Part shown: one piece after another, positions 4,511 to 58,250 of the stretch
Numbering within the stretch: the stretch's first letter is position 1
Layout of the letters: each line of letters starts with the position of its first letter
The notes under the pieces: generated by a model
What the model saw: only the letters and a program-made list of their open reading frames with translations
Databases searched by the model: none
What the model was told of the DNA's origin: nothing
Assembly (NCBI GenBank): GCA_963760795.1
Contig: CAVXEP010000021.1
Coordinates: 1-64,000, forward strand
DNA from: an uncultured delta proteobacterium
GTDB taxonomy: Bacteria; Desulfobacterota; Binatia; UBA9968
Length of the DNA stretch: 64,000 nt
Reading direction: 5' to 3'
Translations under genes and position numbers: made by a program

Positions 4511-5248
4511 ATGAAAACATCCTGGGAAAAAGTCACTGTCGACAATAGCCCCATGGGCATGTACCTCGCCCAACCCGAAGTCGCTGGCGCCGTGCCGGCG
4601 ATCATCGTCGTGCAAAATCAAGACGGCGTCGCCGAGTTTACCCAAGAGATGACCCGGCGGGTCGCCGCGGCCGGCTATGTCGGCATCGCGCCGCAGTTTT
4701 ATCATCGCGAGGGCGAACCCAGGACCCCTGAGGCAACGGCGACCATTAAAAGTAGCCGCAATGACGCCAACGTCATGAGCGACATCCATGCGACGATTAA
4801 TTTTCTCAAAGGCTGCGCCACGGCGGACACGTCACGGTTGGGCATCGTCGGCTTCTGCATGGGCGGGCGCATCGCTTTTCTCGGCGCGGCGGCGACCACG
4901 CTATTCAAAGCCGCGGTCGATTTTTACGGCGGCGGCTGTTACTCGCAATGGGGCGACCGCCCGGCGCCGGCAACCATGGCGGCGAATGTTTGCTGCCCGG
5001 TCCAAGGCCACTTCGGCGAGCTCGACAAGAATCCACCACCGGACGAAATGCGCCGGCTCGACGCCGAGCTCACCCGCCTGGGCAAGACCCATGAATTTTT
5101 CTTTTATCCCGACACGCACCATGGCTTTAATCGCAGCGGTGCGAAGACATATAAGCCCGACCATGACGCGACCTCTTGGGCCCGAACGGTGGAATTTTTC
5201 GCCAGACATCTCGCCGCAACGGATCAAAAGAAGGCCGTCGCCGGTTAG
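4511..5248 (+). CDS. Dienelactone hydrolase family protein
   Basis: Nucleophile motif GIVGFCMGG, plus HFGELD and HHGF. Confidence 0.9.
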   Translation: MKTSWEKVTVDNSPMGMYLAQPEVAGAVPAIIVVQNQDGVAEFTQEMTRRVAAAGYVGIAPQFYHREGEPRTPEATATIKSSRNDANVMSDIHATINFLKGCATADTSRLGIVGFCMGGRIAFLGAAATTLFKAAVDFYGGGCYSQWGDRPAPATMAANVCCPVQGHFGELDKNPPPDEMRRLDAELTRLGKTHEFFFYPDTHHGFNRSGAKTYKPDHDATSWARTVEFFARHLAATDQKKAVAG

Positions 5249-5256
5249 GCGAAAAA

Positions 5257-6232
5257 ATGAACGCCAAACATCTGTTCATCGTCATCCTAGCCCTGATCTT
5301 GGCGCTTGATTGGGCACAACCCGCTGCAAGCGCCGAGCCCAAGCTGCTCAACGTCGGCTGGACCGGCGGTACCGCCTGGACCGCGCTGCCGGACCGGGTC
5401 GCCATCGAGCGCGGTTTTTTCGACAAAGAAGGGCTTGCGGGTTCGCTACGTCCAGTTTCAAGGCACCAACCTGATGCTCAGCGCCTTGATGGCCAACGAG
5501 CTCGACTACGTGACGATCCTGCCGTTCATCGCCGGCGCGGCCACCCGCGGTCTGCCGGTGAAAATTGTCGCCACCACCGTCAAGACCAGCGGTTATGCGA
5601 TCATTTCCCGGCCCGATATCGACAGCGTCAAAGCGCTCAAGGGCAAGAGAATAGCCATCAACACATTTGGCAGCTCGGCAGACTTCGCGATCTATCAACT
5701 GCTCAGCCGCAACGGCCTCGATCCCAACAAGGACGTCACTTTGCAGGCCATCGCCGGCAGCCCTGACGCCCGTTTCGCCGCGCTGCTGAGCGGCGCCGTC
5801 GACGCCACCGTGGTCAACAGTCCATTCGAATACCGCGCCGAGCAAAGAGGCTTTAAGACGCTTTTATCGGTGAAGGAAACCGCCGAGTTCGTCAAGATCC
5901 CGATCGTCGGCTTGAGCACCACGCAGAGAAAAATCGACAGAGAACCGGACGAGATCGTCCGTTATCTGCGCGCCCTGCGCAACGCCATCCTGTTCTTGCA
6001 AAGCCAGCGCGAAGCCGGTGTCAGCTTGATCGAAAAATTGCTCAAGCTCGACCGGCCCGTCGCCGAGCGCTTCTACGGCATCTATCGTGACCAGTTTAAC
6101 CCCGACCTCTCGGTGCCCGACTCGGTCGTCGAAGAATGGATCGCCGTCGGCACCTTTCGCGCCAAGGAAAAAATCACCGCCAAACCTTCGGTGGTCGTCG
6201 ATTGGAGCTTCGCTGAAAAGGCGAGACGTTAG
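5257..6232 (+). CDS. NitT/TauT/SsuA-type ABC substrate-binding protein; frameshift near 5433
   Basis: Signal peptide and AIERGFFDKEGL in frame 5176 continue as RVRYVQF..LKGKRIAINTFGSS..ALLSGAVDA in frame 5306. Confidence 0.85.
6024..6223 (+). repeat. 200-bp direct repeat, copy 1 (3' end of the SBP gene)
   Basis: Aligns ungapped with 8451..8650, 12 mismatches counted by hand. Confidence 0.95.
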
Positions 6233-6260
6233 CGGCACAGGCTCTTGAAGGCGGTTTGCC

Positions 6261-8456
6261 ATGAAACTCGAACTCACGCGCCGGGAATTTTTGCAGTCCG
6301 CCGGCGCTCTGGTGGTTGCCTTCGGGTTACCCGTGGAAGCGGCTGGGCAACCGGCGGCAACATTGCGTCAATTCGGCGGCCCTTTACCAGCCAATCAGCT
6401 CGACTCCTGGCTGATCATTCACAAAGACGGCATGGTCACCGTGCGCACCGGCAAAGTCGAACTCGGTACCGGCGTGTCCACGTCGCTGCGCCAGATCGTC
6501 GCCGACGAGCTCGATTGCGCTTTTGAAAAAATCACCTGGGTGCAGGGCGATACGGCGAACACCGTCGACCAAGCGCCAACCTTCGGCAGCCAAACCATCA
6601 AGCGCGGCGGCAGTCAGTTGCGCCAAGCCGCGGCGGAAGCGAAGGCCACGTTATTATCCTTAGCAGCGGTGCGCTTAGGCGTGGCGGTGGAGATGCTCAC
6701 GGCCAGCCAAGGACTCATCAGCGGCGGCAAAAAATCGGTGACCTACAGCGATCTGCTGGGCGGCTTGTCCTTCAACGGCGAGATCGCCGGCAAGATCAAA
6801 CCGAAGAGCGCCAGCGATTATAAACTCGTTGGTCGATCGGTGCCGCGCGTCGATATTCCGGCGAAGGCAAGCGGTGAGTATATTTATCTGCACAACCTAC
6901 GGCTTCCCGGCATGTTGCATGGACGAGCGATCCGGCCCCCATCGGTCGGGGCAAAGTTGCTCAGCGTCGATGAGACGTCGGTAAAAGAGATTGCCGGCCT
7001 GGTAAAAATTGTCGTTAAACAAAACTTCGTCGGCGTGGTCGCGGCACGCGAAGAGCAGGCGATCCGCGCGGCGCGCGAACTAAAAATCACTTGGCAGGAA
7101 AGCCCAAGCCTGCCGGCGATGGAGCAACTCGCTGACATGCTGCGGAAAATTCCCAGCAACGACAAGCCACCGGCAAATAGCGGCGATGTCACCGCCGCCC
7201 TGAGCGCGTCGGTAAAGACTTTAACCGCGACTTATCACTGGCCCTATCAATTGCACGCGTCCATGGGGCCATCCTGCGCCGTCGCCGATATCAGCAATAG
7301 CCAAGCGACAATCTGGTCGGCGACTCAGGGCGCCCATCAGCTGCGCCCAACCATCGCGAACTTGACGGGAATCACCACCGCTAACGTGCGCGTCATCTAC
7401 GTAGAGGCCGCCGGCTGCTATGGCCACAACGCCGCCGATGACGCCGCCGCCGATGCGGCGCTCTTGTCGCAAGCGGTGGGCAAGCCGGTGCGCGTCCAAT
7501 GGATGCGTCACGACGAACACGCCTGGGAACCCCTCGGCCCGGCAATGGTCATGGAAGTGCGCGGCGGTTTAGATCAGCAGGGAAACGTGACGGCATGGGA
7601 TTATCAGGTCTGGACACCGACCCATTCGAGCCGGCCCAATGGCAGCGCCGGCAGTTTGCTCGCCGGCGCGAATACGGGAATGTCCGCCGGCACGCCCAAT
7701 CAATCCGGCGCCGACCGCAACGCCAATCACACTTATGATTTTAAGAATAATCGCGTGATGGTGCACTGGCTCAACTCCAGTCCGCTGCGTGCCTCCGCGT
7801 TGCGCGGACTCGGTTCGCCGCAGAACACTTTCGCCAACGAATCGTTCATCGACGAACTGGCCAACGCCGCCGGCGCCGATTCGGTGGAGTTTCGTCTTCG
7901 TTACATGAGCGACCCACGCGCCAAAGCCGTGCTCGAAGCCGCGGCAAAGAAGTCCGGCTGGCCCAATCGCCCGGCGCCGTCGCAAGCGGGCTTCAAAAGC
8001 GGTCGAGGCGTGGCCTACGTGCGCTACGATCGAACTGAGGCTTACGTTGCCGCGGTGGTCGATGTCGAAGTCAATCCGGCCGACGGGCAAATTCGAGTTT
8101 CGCGGGTGGTGGTCGCCCATGACTGTGGCCTGATCATCAATCCCGACGGTTTAAGAAATCAGATCGAAGGCAACGTCATCCAAGCGATCAGCCGCACGCT
8201 CAAAGAAGAAGTGACATTCGATCGCTCACGGGTAACCAGCCTTGATTGGCGACTCTATCCAATTTTGCGCTTCCCAGAAATTCCCGAAGTCATTATCGAA
8301 TTGATCGACCGACCCGAACAACCGTCCGTGGGCGCGGGCGAAGCGACGACCAGCGCGATACCGGCGGCCATCGCCAACGCGATTTTCAATGCGACTAACG
8401 TAAGGCTGCGCACCATCCCATTCACGCCGGAGCGCGTGAAGGCGGAGTTGGCTTGA
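6261..8456 (+). CDS. Xanthine dehydrogenase family molybdopterin-binding large subunit (IorB/isoquinoline oxidoreductase beta-like), Tat signal
   Basis: TRREFLQ twin-arginine motif, GKVELGTG, AHDCGLIINPDG, QIEGNVIQ, GAGEA and AIANAIFNAT. Confidence 0.9.
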   Translation: MKLELTRREFLQSAGALVVAFGLPVEAAGQPAATLRQFGGPLPANQLDSWLIIHKDGMVTVRTGKVELGTGVSTSLRQIVADELDCAFEKITWVQGDTANTVDQAPTFGSQTIKRGGSQLRQAAAEAKATLLSLAAVRLGVAVEMLTASQGLISGGKKSVTYSDLLGGLSFNGEIAGKIKPKSASDYKLVGRSVPRVDIPAKASGEYIYLHNLRLPGMLHGRAIRPPSVGAKLLSVDETSVKEIAGLVKIVVKQNFVGVVAAREEQAIRAARELKITWQESPSLPAMEQLADMLRKIPSNDKPPANSGDVTAALSASVKTLTATYHWPYQLHASMGPSCAVADISNSQATIWSATQGAHQLRPTIANLTGITTANVRVIYVEAAGCYGHNAADDAAADAALLSQAVGKPVRVQWMRHDEHAWEPLGPAMVMEVRGGLDQQGNVTAWDYQVWTPTHSSRPNGSAGSLLAGANTGMSAGTPNQSGADRNANHTYDFKNNRVMVHWLNSSPLRASALRGLGSPQNTFANESFIDELANAAGADSVEFRLRYMSDPRAKAVLEAAAKKSGWPNRPAPSQAGFKSGRGVAYVRYDRTEAYVAAVVDVEVNPADGQIRVSRVVVAHDCGLIINPDGLRNQIEGNVIQAISRTLKEEVTFDRSRVTSLDWRLYPILRFPEIPEVIIELIDRPEQPSVGAGEATTSAIPAAIANAIFNATNVRLRTIPFTPERVKAELA

Positions 8457-24494: not shown

Positions 24495-24523
24495 TTGATT
24501 TCCGTTTATCGAAACGGTATAAG
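24495..24523 (+). promoter_or_regulatory. Sigma70-type promoter of the epoxidase unit
   Basis: TTGATT-N17-TATAAG; the spacer itself contains the inverted repeat CCGTTT-N4-AAACGG. Confidence 0.65.
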
Positions 24524-24531
24524 TAAATAAG

Positions 24532-24549
24532 TTCGAACGATCGTTCGAA
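24532..24549. promoter_or_regulatory. Perfect 18-bp palindromic operator (TetR/PaaR type)
   Basis: TTCGAACGATCGTTCGAA just downstream of the -10 box; its core fits CNAACGNNCGTTNG. Confidence 0.7.
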
Positions 24550-24576
24550 TAATATTTGCGACGAAAGGGCCCGGCC

Positions 24577-25683
24577 ATGACCAAAATCTCTACCTTCGAT
24601 GACTGGATCGACTATTTTCATCAGTGGCAAAAAGACATTGGTTACGATGCGGCGCTGCTCGGCGACTACAAGTTCGAAACCAAGCTGGGTGAGCTCCACT
24701 CGCCTGACATTGAATTTGGCGACTTCCAAGGTCAGCAGAAATGGCAGCGGGTCGGCCAGATTCCCAACCAATCGATCCGCGATGCCCTGATGAATCTGAT
24801 CGTCTACCAGGGCGATACCGAGTTTGCCTCGGTTGAACAGCAAAAGAATCTGCTCGATACCGCGCCCACTGAGTACGACCGCAAAGCACTCACACGGGTC
24901 AACAGCGAAGAGATGCGCCATGGCTGGCAGATGTGTTATCTGCTGGTGAATTACTTTGGCGATTCCGGCAAGCTTGAGGCGCGTAAGATGCTCGAGCGCC
25001 GCGCTTTCCGCGGCGACCGGCTGCTCGGCGCCTTTAACGCGCCGGTGAACAACTGGCTCGACTTTTTCACCTACACCGAATTTGTCGACCGCGACGGCAA
25101 GTATCAGTTGACCATGCTCAGCCACTCATCCTTCGCCCCGCTTGCCGAAAGCGTGACGGCGATGCTTAAGGAAGAGCATTTTCACATGTTCACCGGCCAC
25201 ACCGGCCTGACTCGGGTACTCAGAGCTCAAAAGATCCCCGTACCGATCGTGCAAAAATATTTTAATAAATGGCTCTCCACGGCCTACGATCTGTTCGGCA
25301 CCACCAATTCCTCGTCAGCGAATTGGGTCTACACATGGGGTATCAAAGGCCGCTACGACGAACATGCCGCGACCGCGCCGGCGGAGAAAGACAAGCTCAA
25401 CGATCTCGCCCGCGAACACTATATGCGCGAATCGCAACAGCTACTCGACCAGCTCAATCAACTGGTGCCGGAAGGTCAAGCCAAACTGACGGCGCCCGAT
25501 CTGAAATTTAACCGCTCCATCGGCGAGCATGTCGGCAAGAACTATAGCGTCACCGGTGAATTACTCAGCACGGAAGATTATCAGAAACACTTGTACGAAG
25601 TTCTGCCCAATGCCGAAGATGAAAAGATCCTCGCCGAAATCATCCAGGGCAAGGACTGGGTCTCGCAAATTCAGTTGAACTGA
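24577..25683 (+). CDS. BoxB-like diiron aryl-CoA epoxidase (PaaA/PaaC/BoxB ferritin-like family), short form
   Basis: IVYQGDTEFASVEQQ, APTEYD, VNSEEMRHGW, RLLGAFN, FTYTEFVDRDGKYQL, MLKEEHFH and DLFG are collinear with BoxB motifs and iron ligands. Confidence 0.88.
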   Translation: MTKISTFDDWIDYFHQWQKDIGYDAALLGDYKFETKLGELHSPDIEFGDFQGQQKWQRVGQIPNQSIRDALMNLIVYQGDTEFASVEQQKNLLDTAPTEYDRKALTRVNSEEMRHGWQMCYLLVNYFGDSGKLEARKMLERRAFRGDRLLGAFNAPVNNWLDFFTYTEFVDRDGKYQLTMLSHSSFAPLAESVTAMLKEEHFHMFTGHTGLTRVLRAQKIPVPIVQKYFNKWLSTAYDLFGTTNSSSANWVYTWGIKGRYDEHAATAPAEKDKLNDLAREHYMRESQQLLDQLNQLVPEGQAKLTAPDLKFNRSIGEHVGKNYSVTGELLSTEDYQKHLYEVLPNAEDEKILAEIIQGKDWVSQIQLN

Positions 25684-25756
25684 GTCGCCATATCAGCTGC
25701 TGGCCGTATCAACTGTTGCATATCGAATCGAGCGTTAGTAAGTAGAACCCAAGGAG

Positions 25757-26086
25757 ATGCGCGTGAGCCAAACCTGCCTGGTCTGTCAGAATATCGATTG
25801 TAAGTCCCGTGGATCGGAGCAGTTGGCTGCGGAACTGCAACAAAAAATTGCCGCCAAGGGGCTAACCGATGTCGACGTCAAACCCTACATGTGTTTTGGC
25901 GCCTGCCAAGAAGGCCCCAATGTTGTAATTTACCCTGAAAAAAATTGGTACGCTCACGTCAAGAGCGAAGATCTCGACGACATCGTCGCCCATCTCGCCG
26001 GCGCACCCCATGTGCAACGCTTGGACACCATCGATTCGTCGTTGAAGGAATTGATCTACCAACTACTCGACACGGGAATATTCTAA
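25757..26086 (+). CDS. Thioredoxin-like [2Fe-2S] ferredoxin (NuoE C-domain type)
   Basis: C10-x4-C15-x30-C46-x3-C50 followed by GPNVVIYPE..WY. Confidence 0.9.
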   Translation: MRVSQTCLVCQNIDCKSRGSEQLAAELQQKIAAKGLTDVDVKPYMCFGACQEGPNVVIYPEKNWYAHVKSEDLDDIVAHLAGAPHVQRLDTIDSSLKELIYQLLDTGIF

Positions 26087-26090
26087 GCCA

Positions 26091-27341
26091 ATGGAAGGCA
26101 TACTTTTCCCCAAGGGCGTGATCGAGGGGCACGAAGGGCTGAAAGAATATCAGGGCCGCGGCGGCTATGAAGCGTTGACCAAGGCCCTGAAGGGAAGCCC
26201 CGACGATGTTATCAAAATAATCTCCGACGCCGGACTGCGCGGCCATGGCGGGGCGGGGTTCCCCACCGGCAAGAAGTGGCAGTTTACCCGCGAAGCTGCC
26301 GAACTGCCGCGTTATTTGGTGATGAATGGCGGCGAGGATGAACCGGGCAGCCACAAAGACCGCGTGCTGTTGGAAAACCTGCCCCATCTGGTCATCGAAG
26401 GCGCAGTCCTTGGCGCTTATGCCATCGGCGCGGCGAAGGCTTATCTTTACATCAACGCCAAGTACGAAGCGGCGATCAAAAGCGTCAACGACGCTTTGGA
26501 CGAAGCCAGAACAGCGGGCTACTGGGGCGAAAAAGTTCTTGGCAGCAGCTACGACCTCGATATCGAGATCATCGCCGCGCCGCATAACTATGTTGCCGGC
26601 GAAGACACCGCCGTGCTCGAAGTGATCGAAGGCAAGCAGCCTCTGCCGCGGCAAAAACCGCCCTTCCCCGTCACTGTCGGCCTGTTCGGCAAACCGACAT
26701 CGGTCAATAATGTCGAGACGCTGGCAAACGTACCGCGCATTTTATTGAAAGGCGCCGACTGGTATCGCGGCTTCGGCACCAAAGATTGTCCCGGCACCAT
26801 GTTGTTCGCACTCAACGAAACCGAAGAGGTAAAAACCCCCGGCATCTACGAGCTGCCCTTCGGCACGCCGCTACGCTATCTGATTGAAGAATGCGGCGGC
26901 GGCCTGAAAGATGGCAAGAAGATCAAAGCGATCATGCCAGGCTCGCCGTCATCCGCCTATTTGCCGGCGGACAAGATCGATACGCCATTGGAACCCAACG
27001 CCATGCGCGAAGCCGGCTCCATGCTCGGCTGCGGCGTCGTCCATATCGTCCGCGAAGGCGATTCCATCGTCGACGAGCTGGTGCGCATCACCGGCTTCTT
27101 TGCCGCCGAATCCTGTGGCCAATGCGCCGCCTGCCGTATGGAAACCAACACGCTTTCTCTGCTGATGAAGAAAGTTCAACAAGGCCAGGGTAGCCTGGCG
27201 ATCCTGGAACAGTTCGGCAAAGTGCTGGCTTTTAACAAAGGTAAAGGGTTCTGCAACTTGATCGCCATGCCCGGTCCGCCCATCGAAAGCGCCCTCAAAC
27301 TTTTCCCCGACGATTTCCAGGCGCTGCTCGCAACCGCCTAG
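26091..27341 (+). CDS. Stand-alone NuoF-like FMN/[4Fe-4S] NAD(P)H dehydrogenase subunit
   Basis: GLRGHGGAGFPTGKKW, EPGSHKDR, YVAGEDTA, GLFGKPTSVNNVETL, SLBB region and ESCGQCAAC...GFC. Confidence 0.9.
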   Translation: MEGILFPKGVIEGHEGLKEYQGRGGYEALTKALKGSPDDVIKIISDAGLRGHGGAGFPTGKKWQFTREAAELPRYLVMNGGEDEPGSHKDRVLLENLPHLVIEGAVLGAYAIGAAKAYLYINAKYEAAIKSVNDALDEARTAGYWGEKVLGSSYDLDIEIIAAPHNYVAGEDTAVLEVIEGKQPLPRQKPPFPVTVGLFGKPTSVNNVETLANVPRILLKGADWYRGFGTKDCPGTMLFALNETEEVKTPGIYELPFGTPLRYLIEECGGGLKDGKKIKAIMPGSPSSAYLPADKIDTPLEPNAMREAGSMLGCGVVHIVREGDSIVDELVRITGFFAAESCGQCAACRMETNTLSLLMKKVQQGQGSLAILEQFGKVLAFNKGKGFCNLIAMPGPPIESALKLFPDDFQALLATA

Positions 27342-27370
27342 TAATACCCGAATCCGCTAATTAATAATTA

Positions 27371-27399
27371 AAGGGATGCCCATCGGCATCCTTTTGTTT
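27371..27399 (+). terminator. Intrinsic terminator closing the epoxidase unit
   Basis: GGATGCC-CATC-GGCATCC hairpin followed by TTTTGTTT. Confidence 0.8.
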
Positions 27400-28515: not shown

Positions 28516-29347
28516 ATGAGACTCGCACCGATCAAGTGGCCCAACAACGCCAAGATCGCCGTCAGCTTCTTCGTTGCCTTCGAAGCTTTCGAAAAATCTT
28601 CACAGTATCGTCACAGCGAGGGCAAACCGGATTACGCATCGCTCGCCTACGGCGAATACGGCGGCAAGGCCGGCATCTGGCGCATTATGGATGCGCTCGG
28701 CCGCAACGGCGTCAAAGGCACCATCGACACCAACGGCCGCATCGCCGAAGATTTTCCCGACGCTTTGAAAGAGCTCCATGCCGGCGGACATGAAATTGTT
28801 GGCCATGGTTGGGTCAATGACACGGCGCTGTCCAGCCTCGACGCCGCCAGTGAACGAGCGTTAATCAAACGAACACTAGACGCCATCGCGTCGGTGACGG
28901 GGAAACGCCCAGTGGGCTGGGTAAGTCCGGGCCATCGCGTCAACGATTTCACGTTCGGCAACTTTGTTGACGAAGGTATTTTTTGGACCGGCGATCTGCC
29001 GGGACCCGATATTCCGCAGCATCGCATGGTCAACGGCAAACCATTGATCATCATGCCGCGGCTCGATTACGCCAATGATTTGAGCCTCTTGTTCACCCAC
29101 AAAAACCCTGCGCGAGACTATTTCGATAGTTTCAAAGCCGCCTTCGATTGTCTCTACGCCGAAGGCCAAGCCGGGCGCCCCCAAGCTCATCGATTGCCTG
29201 GTCCATGCCCATATCGGCGGCCGGCCCAACATCATCGGCGTGTTCGAAGAATGCATTCGCTACGCCAAAGGGTTTCCCGATGTTTGGTTCGCCACCAAAG
29301 GCGAAATCGCCAAATACTATCTCGACAGCTACGCCAGCAAATCGTAA
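28516..29347 (+). CDS. Polysaccharide deacetylase/PuuE-like family protein; +1 frameshift in the C5 run at 29178-29182
   Basis: WPNNAKIAVSF, YGEYGGKAGIWRI, HEIVGHGW and GWVSPG. The shifted frame gives KLIDCLVHAHIGGRP..DVWFATKGEIAKYY and TAA at 29345-29347. Confidence 0.85.
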
Positions 29348-29361
29348 CCGGAGACACTGCC

Positions 29362-30540
29362 ATGGCCAGCGCTACCGAAAAATACTTAGATGGATTGAAA
29401 TCCAACGAGCTGTTATTGAAGTTCACTTGGGACGAATGGTTGGCCATCGCGCCACCCTATCCTGACGGAAAGTTTACCAGCACCGATGTAACCGCTCGTT
29501 ATCAGCGCAACGGTTACGACTGGGACATGCACGGCACGCTGTACACGCCGGAGAAGGAAACCGATCCGCGCCGCGCCTTTGTCTTTTTTCACGGCGGCGC
29601 GGGCAGTGAAAAGATCATGGACTTGACGCCGGACGGACGGCCGGGTCTGGCGCGGGTCGCGGCTGCCCAGGGGTTCAAAGTCCTCGCGCTCACCTATCCA
29701 GGACATTACCCGCCAGGAGGCGTGTGGAATGTTCCCATCCCCGAGCGCATGCCGATCTATCTCTTGGATCGAGCGCTGAGTCAGGAAGAAATTGCTGACC
29801 GCAATTTGAAATGCACCTTCAACGTCATTCTCCAGGGGGCGGGGGCGCTTACTGATCAACATCTGGCGGGACGTGAAATCATCGGCTTCGGCCATTCCAC
29901 CGGCGGTCCCATGGCTGCGCACCTGGCGCGTTTCAGCAAGAAAACCAAAGTGATCGGCCTGGTCGGATTTGGCAGCGGCGGCCCCGACGGCTGGCGCAAG
30001 GAGTGGCGCGACCAGACCGGCGCGGAAAAATACCGGGAGATTCCAGTGGACCATGTGTCGCGGCGCTCCCCGGACTCGTTCAAAAACTCAGGCTACGTCG
30101 ATCCGGAGGATCTAACGCCGTGGGGCGGCGCCGACGATTACATTCGTCTGGTCAGCCCGCTGCGTTCCCAAATGAAAACCAGTTTGTGCGATAACCAGCA
30201 CAACGCAGCCGTGGGAATCTTGGAAGAGTACCCCAAGCGCACCGGCCTGCCGCGCGAAGAGTACTTCGATCACTTACAGGAACCGGATGCGAATTGGCTG
30301 CAATCGATTCGTGTCTTACTTGTCGCCGGCGAAAACGACAAGGGCCACTGGGTCAACGGCGGCGCGCCGTTGGAAAACAAGCGCGAGATGTTCATGGCCC
30401 GAAAATATGCCGCGATCACACGCGGCGCCCATGTTGTTTTCATCCCACGCTATGGCCACGTTGGCTATTCCGAGCTTTACAATGAAAAAATTGCCTACTT
30501 GTGGCTGTGGGCTTATCGATCGGGGTACTTCGATGATTAA
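29362..30540 (+). CDS. Alpha/beta-fold hydrolase of unknown substrate
   Basis: Own RBS (GGAG) and ATG; FFHGGAG, GFGHSTGG nucleophile elbow, VAGEND and YGH. Confidence 0.75.
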   Translation: MASATEKYLDGLKSNELLLKFTWDEWLAIAPPYPDGKFTSTDVTARYQRNGYDWDMHGTLYTPEKETDPRRAFVFFHGGAGSEKIMDLTPDGRPGLARVAAAQGFKVLALTYPGHYPPGGVWNVPIPERMPIYLLDRALSQEEIADRNLKCTFNVILQGAGALTDQHLAGREIIGFGHSTGGPMAAHLARFSKKTKVIGLVGFGSGGPDGWRKEWRDQTGAEKYREIPVDHVSRRSPDSFKNSGYVDPEDLTPWGGADDYIRLVSPLRSQMKTSLCDNQHNAAVGILEEYPKRTGLPREEYFDHLQEPDANWLQSIRVLLVAGENDKGHWVNGGAPLENKREMFMARKYAAITRGAHVVFIPRYGHVGYSELYNEKIAYLWLWAYRSGYFDD

Positions 30541-57078: not shown

Positions 57079-57765
57079 TCACTCGTCGATGCGCCATTTG
57101 CCGCGCTTGCTGGGATGGCGTAGCGCGGCTTGCAGCTGTTTCAGAAAGACGCGCCGGGACAGCTCCTTCGCACCTAGGCGCAGCATATGGTCGGTGGTCA
57201 TCTGCGAGTCGATGAACCGGAAGCCCCAGCTTTTCAATTTCTCGACCAACGTCGCCAACGCCACCTTCGAAGCATCGGTGTGGCGATGAAACATCGACTC
57301 GCCGAAAAACGCTTTACCCAAGGACACACCGTATAGCCCGCCGACCAATTCGCCGTCGAACCAGGTCTCCACGGAATGGGCGTAGCCCAGACCATGCAGT
57401 TGGACATAGGCGGCTTGCATCTCCGGTGTGATCCAAGTGCCCTTCTGGCCCTCTCGCGGCACGGCGGCGCAAGCGGCGATAACCTCTTCGAAAACCCGGT
57501 CCAGGGTTACTTTGAACACGGCCTTGCGCAGGGTCTTGGCCAAGCTGCGCGAAAGTTTGAAATCGTCCAGCTCTAATGTCAGACGCGGGTCCGGCGACCA
57601 CCAAAGGATCGGCTGATCCTCGGAGTACCAGGGGAAAATGCCCAGGCGGTAGGCCGCCAGCAGCCGGTCGCTGGACAGATCTCCACCCACCGCCAGCAAG
57701 CCGCTGGGATCGGCATAATCCGGCGGTGGGAAGACTAGGTCGTCAACAAGGCGAAATATCGGCAT
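57079..57765 (-). CDS. aat: Leucyl/phenylalanyl-tRNA--protein transferase
   Basis: GLLAVGGDL, AYRLGIFPW, ILWWSPDPR, AHSVE, GGLYGV, FFGESMF and DASKVA. Confidence 0.96.
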   Translation of the reverse strand: MPIFRLVDDLVFPPPDYADPSGLLAVGGDLSSDRLLAAYRLGIFPWYSEDQPILWWSPDPRLTLELDDFKLSRSLAKTLRKAVFKVTLDRVFEEVIAACAAVPREGQKGTWITPEMQAAYVQLHGLGYAHSVETWFDGELVGGLYGVSLGKAFFGESMFHRHTDASKVALATLVEKLKSWGFRFIDSQMTTDHMLRLGAKELSRRVFLKQLQAALRHPSKRGKWRIDE

Positions 57766-57881
57766 AAGCGTGACTCTGATTCGCTGCTATTGTAACTCGA
57801 AGCGGCTAATTTTTCACGTTGGCGCATTATCCTTGCTTTCACCGCGGCGAACAGCCTATGCTTCGGACCGAGGGTAAAGCC

Positions 57882-58250
57882 ATGTTCAAGCGCATCGACC
57901 ATGTTGCCATTCATGTCGCCGATCTTGACCGTTCGGTGGCATTCTACGAACGACATTTTGGTTTTAAACATTATTTTCGCCAGACCGGTAGCGGCGGCCT
58001 GCAGATTGGATATCTAAAATTGGGCGATACGGTGCTTGAACTGACGCACCACAGCGATGGGGTGATGGCCGGTTTCCATTTCTGCCTGGAGACCGACAGT
58101 TTTGATCAGACGGTCGAGCAGCTGCAGCGCGATGGCGTCAAACTCTTGCGCGCGCCCCATGATACCGCCGCCCGCGAACCGCGGGAAAACGGCTGGCGCC
58201 GGGTCGTCTTCGCCGGCCCGGACGGAGAACAGATCGAGTTGCGGGGATAA
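57882..58250 (+). CDS. VOC/glyoxalase family protein
   Basis: IDHVAIHVADL, FHFCLE and GPDGEQIEL. Confidence 0.88.
   Translation: MFKRIDHVAIHVADLDRSVAFYERHFGFKHYFRQTGSGGLQIGYLKLGDTVLELTHHSDGVMAGFHFCLETDSFDQTVEQLQRDGVKLLRAPHDTAAREPRENGWRRVVFAGPDGEQIELRG

Follow-up and report, generated by a model that had tools for sequence, protein, structure and literature searches.

The 64,000-nucleotide stretch of DNA analysed here (the window), which comes from an uncultured soil bacterium of the class Binatia, carries at positions 24495-27399 a compact unit of three genes, encoding a short BoxB-like diiron protein, a thioredoxin-like ferredoxin and a NuoF-like flavoprotein. The evidence leans towards this trio forming an NAD(P)H- and O2-dependent ring oxygenase of aryl-coenzyme A (aryl-CoA) esters, with a NuoF-type protein as its reductase. 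The elements of the unit are as follows.

24495..24523 (+): promoter-like pair read by eye, with a −35 hexamer TTGATT (24495-24500), a 17-nt spacer and a −10 hexamer TATAAG (24518-24523)
24532..24549 (no strand): 18-bp perfect palindrome, the candidate operator of a PaaR/PfmR-like TetR repressor
24577..25683 (+): gene for the short BoxB-like diiron protein, 368 residues from an ATG
25757..26086 (+): gene for the thioredoxin-like [2Fe-2S] ferredoxin, 109 residues, 73 bp past the stop of the boxB-like gene
26091..27341 (+): gene for the NuoF-like flavoprotein, with predicted flavin mononucleotide (FMN) and [4Fe-4S] cofactors, 416 residues, 4 bp past the ferredoxin stop
27374..27399 (+): intrinsic-terminator-like element, a 7-bp G+C-rich hairpin (27374-27391) with a T-run

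As proposed, the trio would be a self-contained three-component oxygenase with an aromatic acyl-CoA as its substrate; benzoyl-CoA, or a compound much like it, is the likeliest. The NuoF-like flavoprotein would take hydride from NAD(P)H onto FMN and pass single electrons, via its [4Fe-4S] cluster, to the [2Fe-2S] ferredoxin, which would dock on the short BoxB-like protein (hereafter short BoxB) and reduce its diiron centre; the latter would then activate O2 and oxygenate, probably epoxidise, the ring of the CoA ester. A PaaR/PfmR-like TetR protein sensing acyl- or aryl-CoA would sit on the palindrome just past the promoter, so blocking expression of the operon until the CoA ester builds up, and the product would be handled by PaaG/PaaF/PaaH/thiolase-like enzymes encoded beside a candidate repressor gene on contig 9 of the same genome, rather than by BoxC. 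We infer the electron chain, from NAD(P)H through FMN and the Fe-S clusters to the diiron centre, from gene linkage and cofactor motifs, and the electron-transfer steps, substrate, reaction, repressor-operator pairing and contig-9 link are proposed in the same spirit; what was observed, and bears on them, is the order and conservation of the genes, their cofactor and ligand motifs, the fold, the pattern of the operator and the distribution.

The initial annotation of the locus, made from the sequence alone, described the first gene product as a BoxB-like diiron enzyme, and its fold, its six iron ligands and a largely retained benzoyl pocket bear this out. The protein passes the cut-off for the PaaA_PaaC family (PF05138, 48.8 bits against 28.5), its strong match to the BoxB model TIGR03225 is limited to profile positions 83-323 of 471, and its match to the PaaA model TIGR02156 (43 bits) is weaker than that to BoxB. 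The best match of solved structure is BoxB (3PER, E 3.8e-51), followed by a 235-residue Sulfolobus protein (4MUD) and by PaaA. An AlphaFold2 model built from a 43-row alignment has a mean predicted local distance difference test score (pLDDT) of 94.0 and a predicted template modelling score (pTM) of 0.91; by Foldseek, its template modelling (TM) score against BoxB with bound benzoyl-CoA (3PM5_A) is 0.89 when scaled to the model and 0.70 when scaled to BoxB, at 30% identity, and that against PaaA is 0.56. As modelled, the diiron protein is a trimmed BoxB of BoxB fold, from which the first 40 or so BoxB residues, the inserts after BoxB 256 and 322, and the C-terminal extension are absent. Among the candidates scored, 4623 proteins are relatives of short BoxB at E 0.001 or better, making up a large family in soil metagenomes, the members of which are labelled boxB or 'phenylacetic acid catabolic protein'.

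All four motifs that had been picked out as ligands, GDTE, EEMRH, DRDG and EEHFH, are present in the protein and align to the BoxB ligands E120, E150/H153, D211 and E240/H243, all six of which the window protein shares. In the short family, at least 38 of 39 rows retain the ligand at each of these positions. At E120, E150, H153, D211 and E240 one of the 39 rows differs (H, N, S, N and H, respectively); these five departures may all come from a single row, suspected to be P0176, which has a very long branch and would then be a non-catalytic offshoot. According to PMC5489048, benzoyl-CoA is contacted or oriented in BoxB by Q116, T119, S123, F193, F203, F206 and T210, with Q116 hydrogen-bonding the substrate; Q116, T119, S123, F193 and F203, i.e. 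five of these seven residues, are retained in the window protein.

The conserved neighbourhood that the initial annotation had proposed as a check is found. A scan of public genomes gave at least 600 matched stretches, at least 594 of them encoding a relative, of which 80 loci were kept for comparison; these comprise 29 close loci (71-93% identity) and 51 sister loci (56-63% identity). The ferredoxin gene lies next to short boxB in all 29 close loci, and the nuoF-like gene is also present in 28, the contig of the 29th stopping 23 bases past the ferredoxin match. The trio is intact in two differing flank contexts, with ptsP upstream in 20 of the 29 and, in others, tctCBA upstream and aat (Leu/Phe-tRNA protein transferase) downstream. 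The three genes are a conserved unit of one origin. A proposed fusion of ferredoxin and NuoF in one locus (L045) was rejected, being an upstream extension of the nuoF frame.

The operator claimed in the initial annotation is present as the 18-bp perfect palindrome at 24532-24549. PaaR (TTHA0973), a TetR-family protein of Thermus thermophilus, represses paaABCD and also the operon of phenylacetyl-CoA ligase, with the consensus 5'-CNAACGNNCGTTNG-3', according to PMC6651687, and the 14-bp core of the palindrome fits this consensus at all 10 fixed positions. The same pattern is found in 27 of the 29 trio loci, the other two being a locus with a single mismatch and one that starts inside the site, and variation falls on the N positions. 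Regulon members were sought by the exact degenerate pattern, which has six matches in the bacterium's own genome; the full palindrome occurs only in the window, and its strict 16-bp form once in the 6.58 Mb. The match at contig 2:47164, inside a 334-residue open reading frame (ORF), was taken as chance.

The palindrome also fits the Gram-positive LexA (Cheo) box. Control by the SOS response was rejected: the trio operators of relatives break the Cheo pattern and keep the PaaR pattern, the looser form CGAAC-N4-GTTCG occurs 13 times in the genome against about 7.5 expected, with the strict 16-bp form found once, and the genome's own lexA (contig 32) is headed by a palindrome of a different type. 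This last is a 20-bp palindrome of CTG-N10-CAG type that directly follows a TTGAC-type hexamer, some 30 bp upstream of lexA (399378), and is likely the LexA box of the lineage.

A palindrome of the trio type is present in 17 of the 51 sister loci. A TetR gene (TetR_N and TetR_C_24 domains) is borne by 23 of the 51, and in 15 of those 23 the palindrome lies at the 5' end of that gene. In Acidobacteriota, TetR-led operons run through crotonase genes, sometimes with aldehyde dehydrogenase, Mug/UDG-like and ferritin-like genes, to short boxB. In two of these loci (L054:4447-4974; L070:4157-4705 and 4727-5146) the Mug/UDG-superfamily gene stands between crotonases, with a 139-residue ferritin-like gene added in one operon; what Mug/UDG-like and ferritin-like proteins would do in CoA-ester catabolism is not evident. 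No TetR gene of the sister type lies within 6 kb in any of the 29 trio loci. A single homologue was found in the window's own genome, at contig 9:87613-88308 (−), with 38-42% identity and the same TetR_N and TetR_C_24 domains. Among solved structures it is nearest to PfmR of Thermus (3VPR) and to AibR of Myxococcus xanthus (5K7F), a sensor of isovaleryl-CoA; by analogy, it is the candidate partner of the trio palindrome. It is divergent from four genes, all of which score under the equivalog cut-offs.

Contig 9: PaaF-like crotonase (NF007239, 314 of 371 bits)
Contig 9: PaaG-like crotonase (TIGR02280, 287 of 345 bits)
Contig 9: PaaH-like dehydrogenase (TIGR02279, 360 of 669 bits)
Contig 9: 3-oxoadipyl-CoA-thiolase-like protein (NF006551, 301 of 605 bits)

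At contig 9:90409-93118 (L109:6409-9118) the PaaH-like gene is split, into 288 residues and a 176-residue piece, and the thiolase-like gene is matched in its N-terminal domain alone. A PaaK-like gene (226 of 646 bits) is present in the genome as well, as are two genes resembling that of benzoate-CoA ligase, one on contig 29 and one on contig 22; the latter (195957-197045) encodes 362 residues and begins at profile position 155. The PaaH-like, thiolase-like and contig-22 ligase-like genes all look broken or shortened, whether through a frameshift or through faulty assembly. The absence of boxA and boxC, which had been noted for the window, extends to the whole of the 88.9% complete genome, in which the best scores are 33.5 bits against 459.2 for BoxA and 48.6 against 712.3 for BoxC, no PaaA is over its cut-off (best 95 of 280 bits) and PaaE has no match.

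Further clues to the substrate come from the sister loci. A crotonase gene is directly 5' of short boxB in 28 of the 51, and 14 have a gene for 3-hydroxyacyl-CoA dehydrogenase no more than 3 kb away. Two Binatia genomes from a different family have a crotonase gene followed by short boxB, then by a gene of the benzoate-CoA ligase family (TIGR02262, 645 bits against a cut-off of 375) and then by a tetratricopeptide repeat (TPR) gene; in a relative, the ligase, boxC and boxB, in this order, adjoin the same TPR gene and decarboxylase genes, as if either the short-boxB set or the boxC-boxB set had taken the place of the other. In the nearest sister locus, which is Acidobacterial (L056), a regulator gene is divergent from short boxB and a ferredoxin gene, and the 1.2 kb downstream contain no NuoF-like gene.

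L056, 4787-5737 (−): 316-residue regulator, a helix-turn-helix (HTH) domain of the HTH_3 (HTH-XRE) type joined to a shikimate-kinase domain
L056, 5986-7125 (+): short boxB
L056, 7083-7517 (+): ferredoxin gene

Regulators of the BzdR/BoxR type have the same architecture of HTH and kinase-like domains, and the kinase-like domain of BzdR binds benzoyl-CoA, as given in PMC3602430. Because of the operator type, the sister-locus ligase and the sister-locus BzdR-type regulator, the analogies point to benzoyl-CoA or a near analogue as substrate; the initial annotation had left the CoA ester open, and it is now less so, its identity being a matter of inference. The same three-component oxygenase might instead accept a non-aromatic acyl-CoA (aliphatic, branched or alicyclic), which it would hydroxylate or desaturate for entry into beta-oxidation. 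The crotonases, 3-hydroxyacyl-CoA dehydrogenase, thiolase and aldehyde dehydrogenase linked to sister members are those of generic beta-oxidation and fall under the Paa equivalog cut-offs, AibR, which together with PfmR heads the solved matches of the TetR protein, senses isovaleryl-CoA, and two pocket residues are unlike BoxB throughout the family. It is nevertheless unlikely, since five of the seven benzoyl-contacting residues are retained, with three at aromatic positions, a benzoate-CoA ligase family gene over its cut-off and a BzdR-type regulator flank sister members, and the known proteins closest to it in sequence and fold, BoxB and PaaA, both use aromatic CoA esters as substrates.

Turning to the candidate reductase components of the proposed aryl-CoA oxygenase, the ferredoxin passes the cut-off of PF01257 (2Fe-2S_thioredx, 36.6 bits against 24.8), whereas its score against the NuoE model TIGR01958 is 36.3 of 142.4 bits and covers profile positions 72-147 of 148 only, i.e. 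the C-terminal half. The NuoE-type label that it had been given is therefore not retained; it is a stand-alone thioredoxin-like module. Among solved structures it comes closest to Fd4 of Aquifex (1F37, E 9e-12) and to HydB-type subunits in their N-terminal domain (7Q4V_B residues 8-86; 7T2R_B), with NuoE proper at E 0.002. Its four cysteines C10, C15, C46 and C50 (Cx4Cx30Cx3C) do not vary in any of the 28 sequences compared and align to the ligand positions of HydB and Fd4. At the C terminus a helix-like tail (about residues 88-109) hardly varies, with residues 96-107 invariant or nearly so, and is retained even in an Acidobacterial homologue of 46% identity. Predictions of a complex of short BoxB with the ferredoxin, made without folded controls, gave 0.36, 0.01 and 0.00 in three runs, against a mark of 0.32, and speak neither for nor against such a complex.

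The NuoF-like protein has the FMN-binding Complex1_51K domain (PF01512, 149.5 bits against a cut-off of 31.2), the SLBB domain (PF10531, 35.6 against 27) and the NADH_4Fe-4S domain (PF10589, 56.2 against 23.5), all over threshold. Against the NuoF model TIGR01959 it scores 409.7 bits, under the cut-off of 558.65, and no further nuo gene was found in the window. The label NuoF-like thus stands as far as the domains go, but the closest solved matches are of HydB/NfnB type (NfnB 9N5U_B, E 3e-101; HydB 7P5H_B), slightly ahead of Nqo1 of Thermus complex I (2FUG_1, E 2.9e-96). The protein is a bare core: the Fe-S domains that HydB-type subunits carry at their N and C termini are missing. In 29 trio sequences both the FMN loop GLRGxGGAGFPTG and the CGQCxxCR...C (Cx2Cx2C...C) motif are preserved. 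The bacterium's own genome carries a second, canonical NuoF, that of complex I, on contig 17.

The distribution of the trio was followed in 151 Binatia genomes, 19 from the bacterium's own order and 132 others, which are related and represent few independent events. A short-type BoxB match is present in all 19 own-order genomes and in all three of one further genus. BoxB over its cut-off (true BoxB) was found in none of the 19 and in 41 of the 132; BoxC (E 1e-60 or better) is likewise absent from the own order (0/19) and from the further short-type genus (0/3), hence from all 22 short-type genomes sampled, is present in 43 of the 132, and was never found in the sample outside BoxB-bearing families. 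Genomes with over-cut-off BoxB have no short-type match among the matches listed, and in this sample of 151 the short form and true BoxB/BoxC are mutually exclusive. Trio-type NuoF (E 1e-120 or better) occurs in 18 of the 19 own-order genomes, the miss being a 93% complete genome, and in none of the remaining 132; wherever both listed matches share a contig, it lies beside short boxB. The conserved linkage is thus seen in 28 of the 29 closest loci and 18 of the 19 sampled own-order genomes, and in the sister loci the nuoF-like gene is absent (0/51) and the ferredoxin gene is found once (1/51, L056).

BoxA (E 1e-40 or better) was detected in none of the 151 genomes, including the 41 with true BoxB, in a search that had no positive control among 14 control genomes. 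True BoxB in those 41 genomes usually stands beside BoxC. Some trio loci (L020, L026, L027, L031 and L035, 78-93% identity) come from metagenome-assembled genomes labelled Limnocylindrales, Udaeobacter, Eisenbacteria and Verrucomicrobiia; they look like mis-binned Binatia contigs rather than products of transfer, some of them sharing the ptsP-trio synteny of Binatia.

The tree against BoxB and PaaA that had been suggested places the trio clade inside the short family and apart from long BoxB. In a quick maximum-likelihood tree of 97 rows, rooted on three 240-residue PaaA/C-like proteins of the bacterium's own genome, long BoxB forms its own group (4 rows) with a Shimodaira-Hasegawa-like approximate likelihood ratio test (SH-aLRT) value of 99, the short family forms another (88 rows, SH-aLRT 92), and the trio-linked proteins are a single clade nested in the latter (29 rows, SH-aLRT 97); several representative rows are on very long branches and their placement is unsure, and a frameshifted row (L047, match of 267 residues only) and a wrong-frame row (L104:5765-7042, 18% identity) were left out. 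The sister pair of the trio clade consists of the protein of L056 and a Binatia paralogue, the gene of which is convergent to one for a GlpC-like CCG-domain Fe-S protein. Our reading of the tree is that the NuoF-type partner was captured once, and late, with the ferredoxin possibly acquired earlier. The second short-BoxB paralogue, found in many own-order genomes (L101:4958-6154 (+), with the GlpC-like gene at 6173-7435 (−); also L104), may have a further redox partner in the GlpC-like protein; in the window's own genome a single short boxB was seen.

These distributions bear directly on whether the ferredoxin and the NuoF-like protein, although co-regulated with short BoxB, are its reductase at all, or form an NADH:ferredoxin module for another enzyme or for a general pool, with short BoxB fed elsewhere. 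That 50 of the 51 sister loci have short boxB with neither gene nearby implies that another donor suffices for the family; true BoxB functions in the class in genomes where BoxA is not detectable, and the NuoF-type modules among the solved matches are all respiratory, hydrogenase, formate dehydrogenase or bifurcating. Yet the trio-type NuoF is found in trio genomes only, beside short boxB, the three genes are tightly spaced (73 and 4 bp) between one promoter/operator and one terminator, and the one sister locus that pairs short boxB with a ferredoxin preserves the same C-terminal tail, so that a separate module appears decidedly unlikely.

It is very unlikely that the trio is instead an NADH-driven oxidase or peroxidase of the rubrerythrin kind, consuming O2 or peroxide without an organic substrate, for cell protection or iron management. 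The benzoyl-thioester-binding Q116 and the pocket-shaping residues are invariant or nearly so, and the operator is shared with TetR-led acyl-CoA operons, neither of which would have a role in a substrate-free oxidase; a ferritin-like diiron fold, the housekeeping-like context in Binatia, the very high conservation of short BoxB (80-96% identity among the best 120 matches) and the ferritin-like gene of one Acidobacterial cluster are what such a function would explain. Reductive operation, in which electrons from the NuoF-like protein and ferredoxin would let the diiron protein deoxygenate an epoxide or reduce the CoA ester at low O2, recalls the epoxide deoxygenation that, as the abstract of PMC5489048 notes, has been suggested for BoxB, and the electron-bifurcating enzymes among the nearest solved NuoF-like relatives, but is highly improbable for a bare NuoF core with neither a bifurcation partner nor extra ferredoxin domains, and for a ligand set that is that of O2-activating BoxB.

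Set against the proposal of an aryl-CoA oxygenase with a NuoF-type reductase are a number of points. Short BoxB scores 239.7 bits against TIGR03225, under the cut-off of 499.1, and is about 100 residues smaller than BoxB (368 against about 475). In its pocket F206 is replaced by Y and T210 by V, as in much of the short family (Y at F206 in 32 of 39 rows, V or I at T210 in 36 of 39); in long BoxB both residues are unchanged (4/4 rows), and in PMC5489048 a density functional theory study credits the T210-D211 peptide with the regio- and stereoselectivity of BoxB. The changes at T210 and F206 are such that the regiochemistry of short BoxB is possibly altered. In the NuoF-like protein, the loop before GEDTA reads AAPHNYVAGEDTAV (AAPHNYVAG), mostly invariant in the trio clade and non-canonical; the canonical loop, which precedes GEETAL, is rich in glycine, and in the genome's own complex I NuoF it reads GAGAYICGEETAL (GAGAYICG). 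The PaaR consensus, as PMC6651687 describes it, was built from two promoters, with a different spacing obtained by selecting and amplifying sites protected from a restriction endonuclease (REPSA). The 470-bp intergenic region beside the contig-9 TetR gene has no exact pattern and no inverted repeat, and because the palindrome is absent there the pairing of this regulator with the trio operator is by analogy only. The Binatia trio has no CoA-metabolic neighbour, lying amid housekeeping and transport genes, and the genome, besides being 88.9% complete, has 6.15% contamination. Since none of the 151 genomes carries BoxA, even those with true BoxB, loss of BoxA fails to separate short-type from true-BoxB genomes and does not by itself demand a new reductase; the count of 18 of 19 is essentially one evolutionary event in non-independent kin. 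The function, nucleotide (NADH or NADPH) and substrate of all members of the family are predictions from sequences and models.

The diiron protein of the trio is not BoxB by the curated test, nor is the trio part of a box or paa pathway; its action is most probably BoxB-like. A broader proposal, which we put forward tentatively, is that the short-BoxB family may supply the oxygenase of a third, so far undescribed aerobic 'CoA-epoxide' route by which soil bacteria would use aromatic acids, independent of both BoxA/BoxC and PaaABCDE and feeding PaaG/F/H/J-like enzymes under a PaaR-like repressor, for which one Binatia order would have captured a complex-I-type NADH dehydrogenase core and a thioredoxin-like ferredoxin as its dedicated reductase.

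The trio shares with BoxAB, the benzoyl-CoA 2,3-epoxidase of Azoarcus/Aromatoleum evansii (3PER, 3PF7, 3PM5, 3Q1G) its fold, six ligands, five pocket residues and presumed reaction class. BoxA, the reductase of BoxB, is an FAD protein of the ferredoxin-NADP+ reductase (FNR) type with two [4Fe-4S] clusters, and PaaE, which serves PaaABC, is also FNR-type; by contrast, short BoxB is linked to a NuoF-type FMN/[4Fe-4S] protein and a thioredoxin-like [2Fe-2S] ferredoxin, without BoxA or BoxC. In common with the phenylacetyl-CoA 1,2-epoxidase PaaABC(D)E, it belongs to PF05138, has an operator of PaaR consensus and likely depends on PaaG/PaaF/PaaH/thiolase-like downstream enzymes, but PaaB, PaaC and PaaD are not linked to the trio, PaaE was not found in the genome, and its paa-like genes score under their cut-offs. 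Likewise, the operator core fits PaaR and the contig-9 TetR matches PfmR and AibR, but the candidate repressor gene is not beside the trio.

The reductase candidates have the FMN, SLBB and [4Fe-4S] domains and the Cx4C...Cx3C [2Fe-2S] module of NuoF/NuoE in complex I and of the HydB/HydC-type subunits found in NfnABC, in formate dehydrogenases and in hydrogenases that are NAD-linked or bifurcating (2FUG, 7Q4V, 7P5H, 9N5U). The trio locus differs from these in having no NuoG-, hydrogenase- or formate-dehydrogenase-type partner. Its [2Fe-2S] module, unlike NuoE, is a separate 109-residue protein without the N-terminal helical part, and its NuoF, unlike HydB-type subunits, lacks C-terminal ferredoxin domains and has a changed loop before GEDTA. 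A NuoEF-like module is tied to attack on the benzoyl-CoA ring in Geobacter, where the class II benzoyl-CoA reductase BamB-I operates with the NuoE/F-like BamG/H; that system, however, is anaerobic, reductive, tungsten-dependent and multi-subunit, with no diiron oxygenase.

To our knowledge, diiron oxygenases have so far drawn electrons from FNR-type, glutathione-reductase-type or Rieske/plant-type ferredoxin chains. If the proposal is correct, a NuoF-type flavoprotein serving as oxygenase reductase would constitute a new class of electron supply, short BoxB would be the first oxygenase known to run on such a flavoprotein, and the input module of complex I would have been reused outside respiration, hydrogenases and formate dehydrogenases. 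The initial annotation's view that the arrangement is undescribed is upheld by full-text literature searches (subscription papers and supplements being outside their scope), in which no description of short BoxB, or of an oxygenase with a NuoF-type reductase, was found. A preprint tallies benzoyl-CoA pathway genes in Binatota from automatic annotation. Short BoxB being routinely named boxB, pathway surveys count a box pathway, yet BoxC was found in none of the 22 short-type genomes sampled. The operator, candidate repressor and paa-like lower pathway offer an entry to aromatic-acid use by abundant uncultured Binatia and Acidobacteriota.

The layout given in the initial annotation also holds. 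The TTGATT/17 nt/TATAAG promoter pair is visible by eye, and most of the 29 related loci have, again by eye, a TTGAyTT...TATAAn-like pair at the equivalent position; a consensus promoter scan did not list the pair at 24495-24523 because its −10 hexamer ends in G. The ATG of the boxB-like gene is preceded by a GAAAGGG-type ribosome site, and the ORF listing stretches this frame to a TTG at 24556. The three tightly spaced genes, the 4-bp gap before the nuoF-like gene and the terminator are as described; for the terminator, the scan listed the hairpin in its minus-strand reading only, and the plus-strand T-run was read from the sequence. Outside the trio, the 52 window ORFs scanned include nothing of the nuo, hydrogenase, formate dehydrogenase, box or paa kinds, again as had been stated.

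There is a hint of expression in contigs from four RNA libraries (four studies; soil, rhizosphere and estuary) that match parts of all three genes at 90-99% identity, although DNA carry-over is possible and a contig does not equal a transcript. One such contig crosses the ferredoxin/nuoF junction (26057-26383) with 1 mismatch in 327 letters, and another, from a relative, spans 25615-26222; the libraries cover small shares of the stretch (0.05-0.16), and the uncovered parts carry no meaning.

The flanks of the trio are unrelated to it, consisting upstream of a GAF-EI(Ntr) ptsP gene on the same strand, and downstream of a solute-binding protein gene and a deacetylase/hydrolase fusion. The latter is a 674-residue ORF (28516-30540) in which the N-terminal domain is polysaccharide-deacetylase/PuuE-like and is fused to one of the alpha/beta-hydrolase type; it is kept 3' of the trio in several relatives. 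Between the trio and an aat/glyoxalase gene pair lie approximately 30 kb (27489-52332 and 57079-58250) that are dense in solute-binding protein genes of SBP_bac_6/8, NMT1, SBP_bac_5 and TctC types, many without a neighbouring permease, together with amidohydrolase genes. Because aat and the glyoxalase gene come straight after the trio in other Binatia loci, this block looks like an expansion or insertion.

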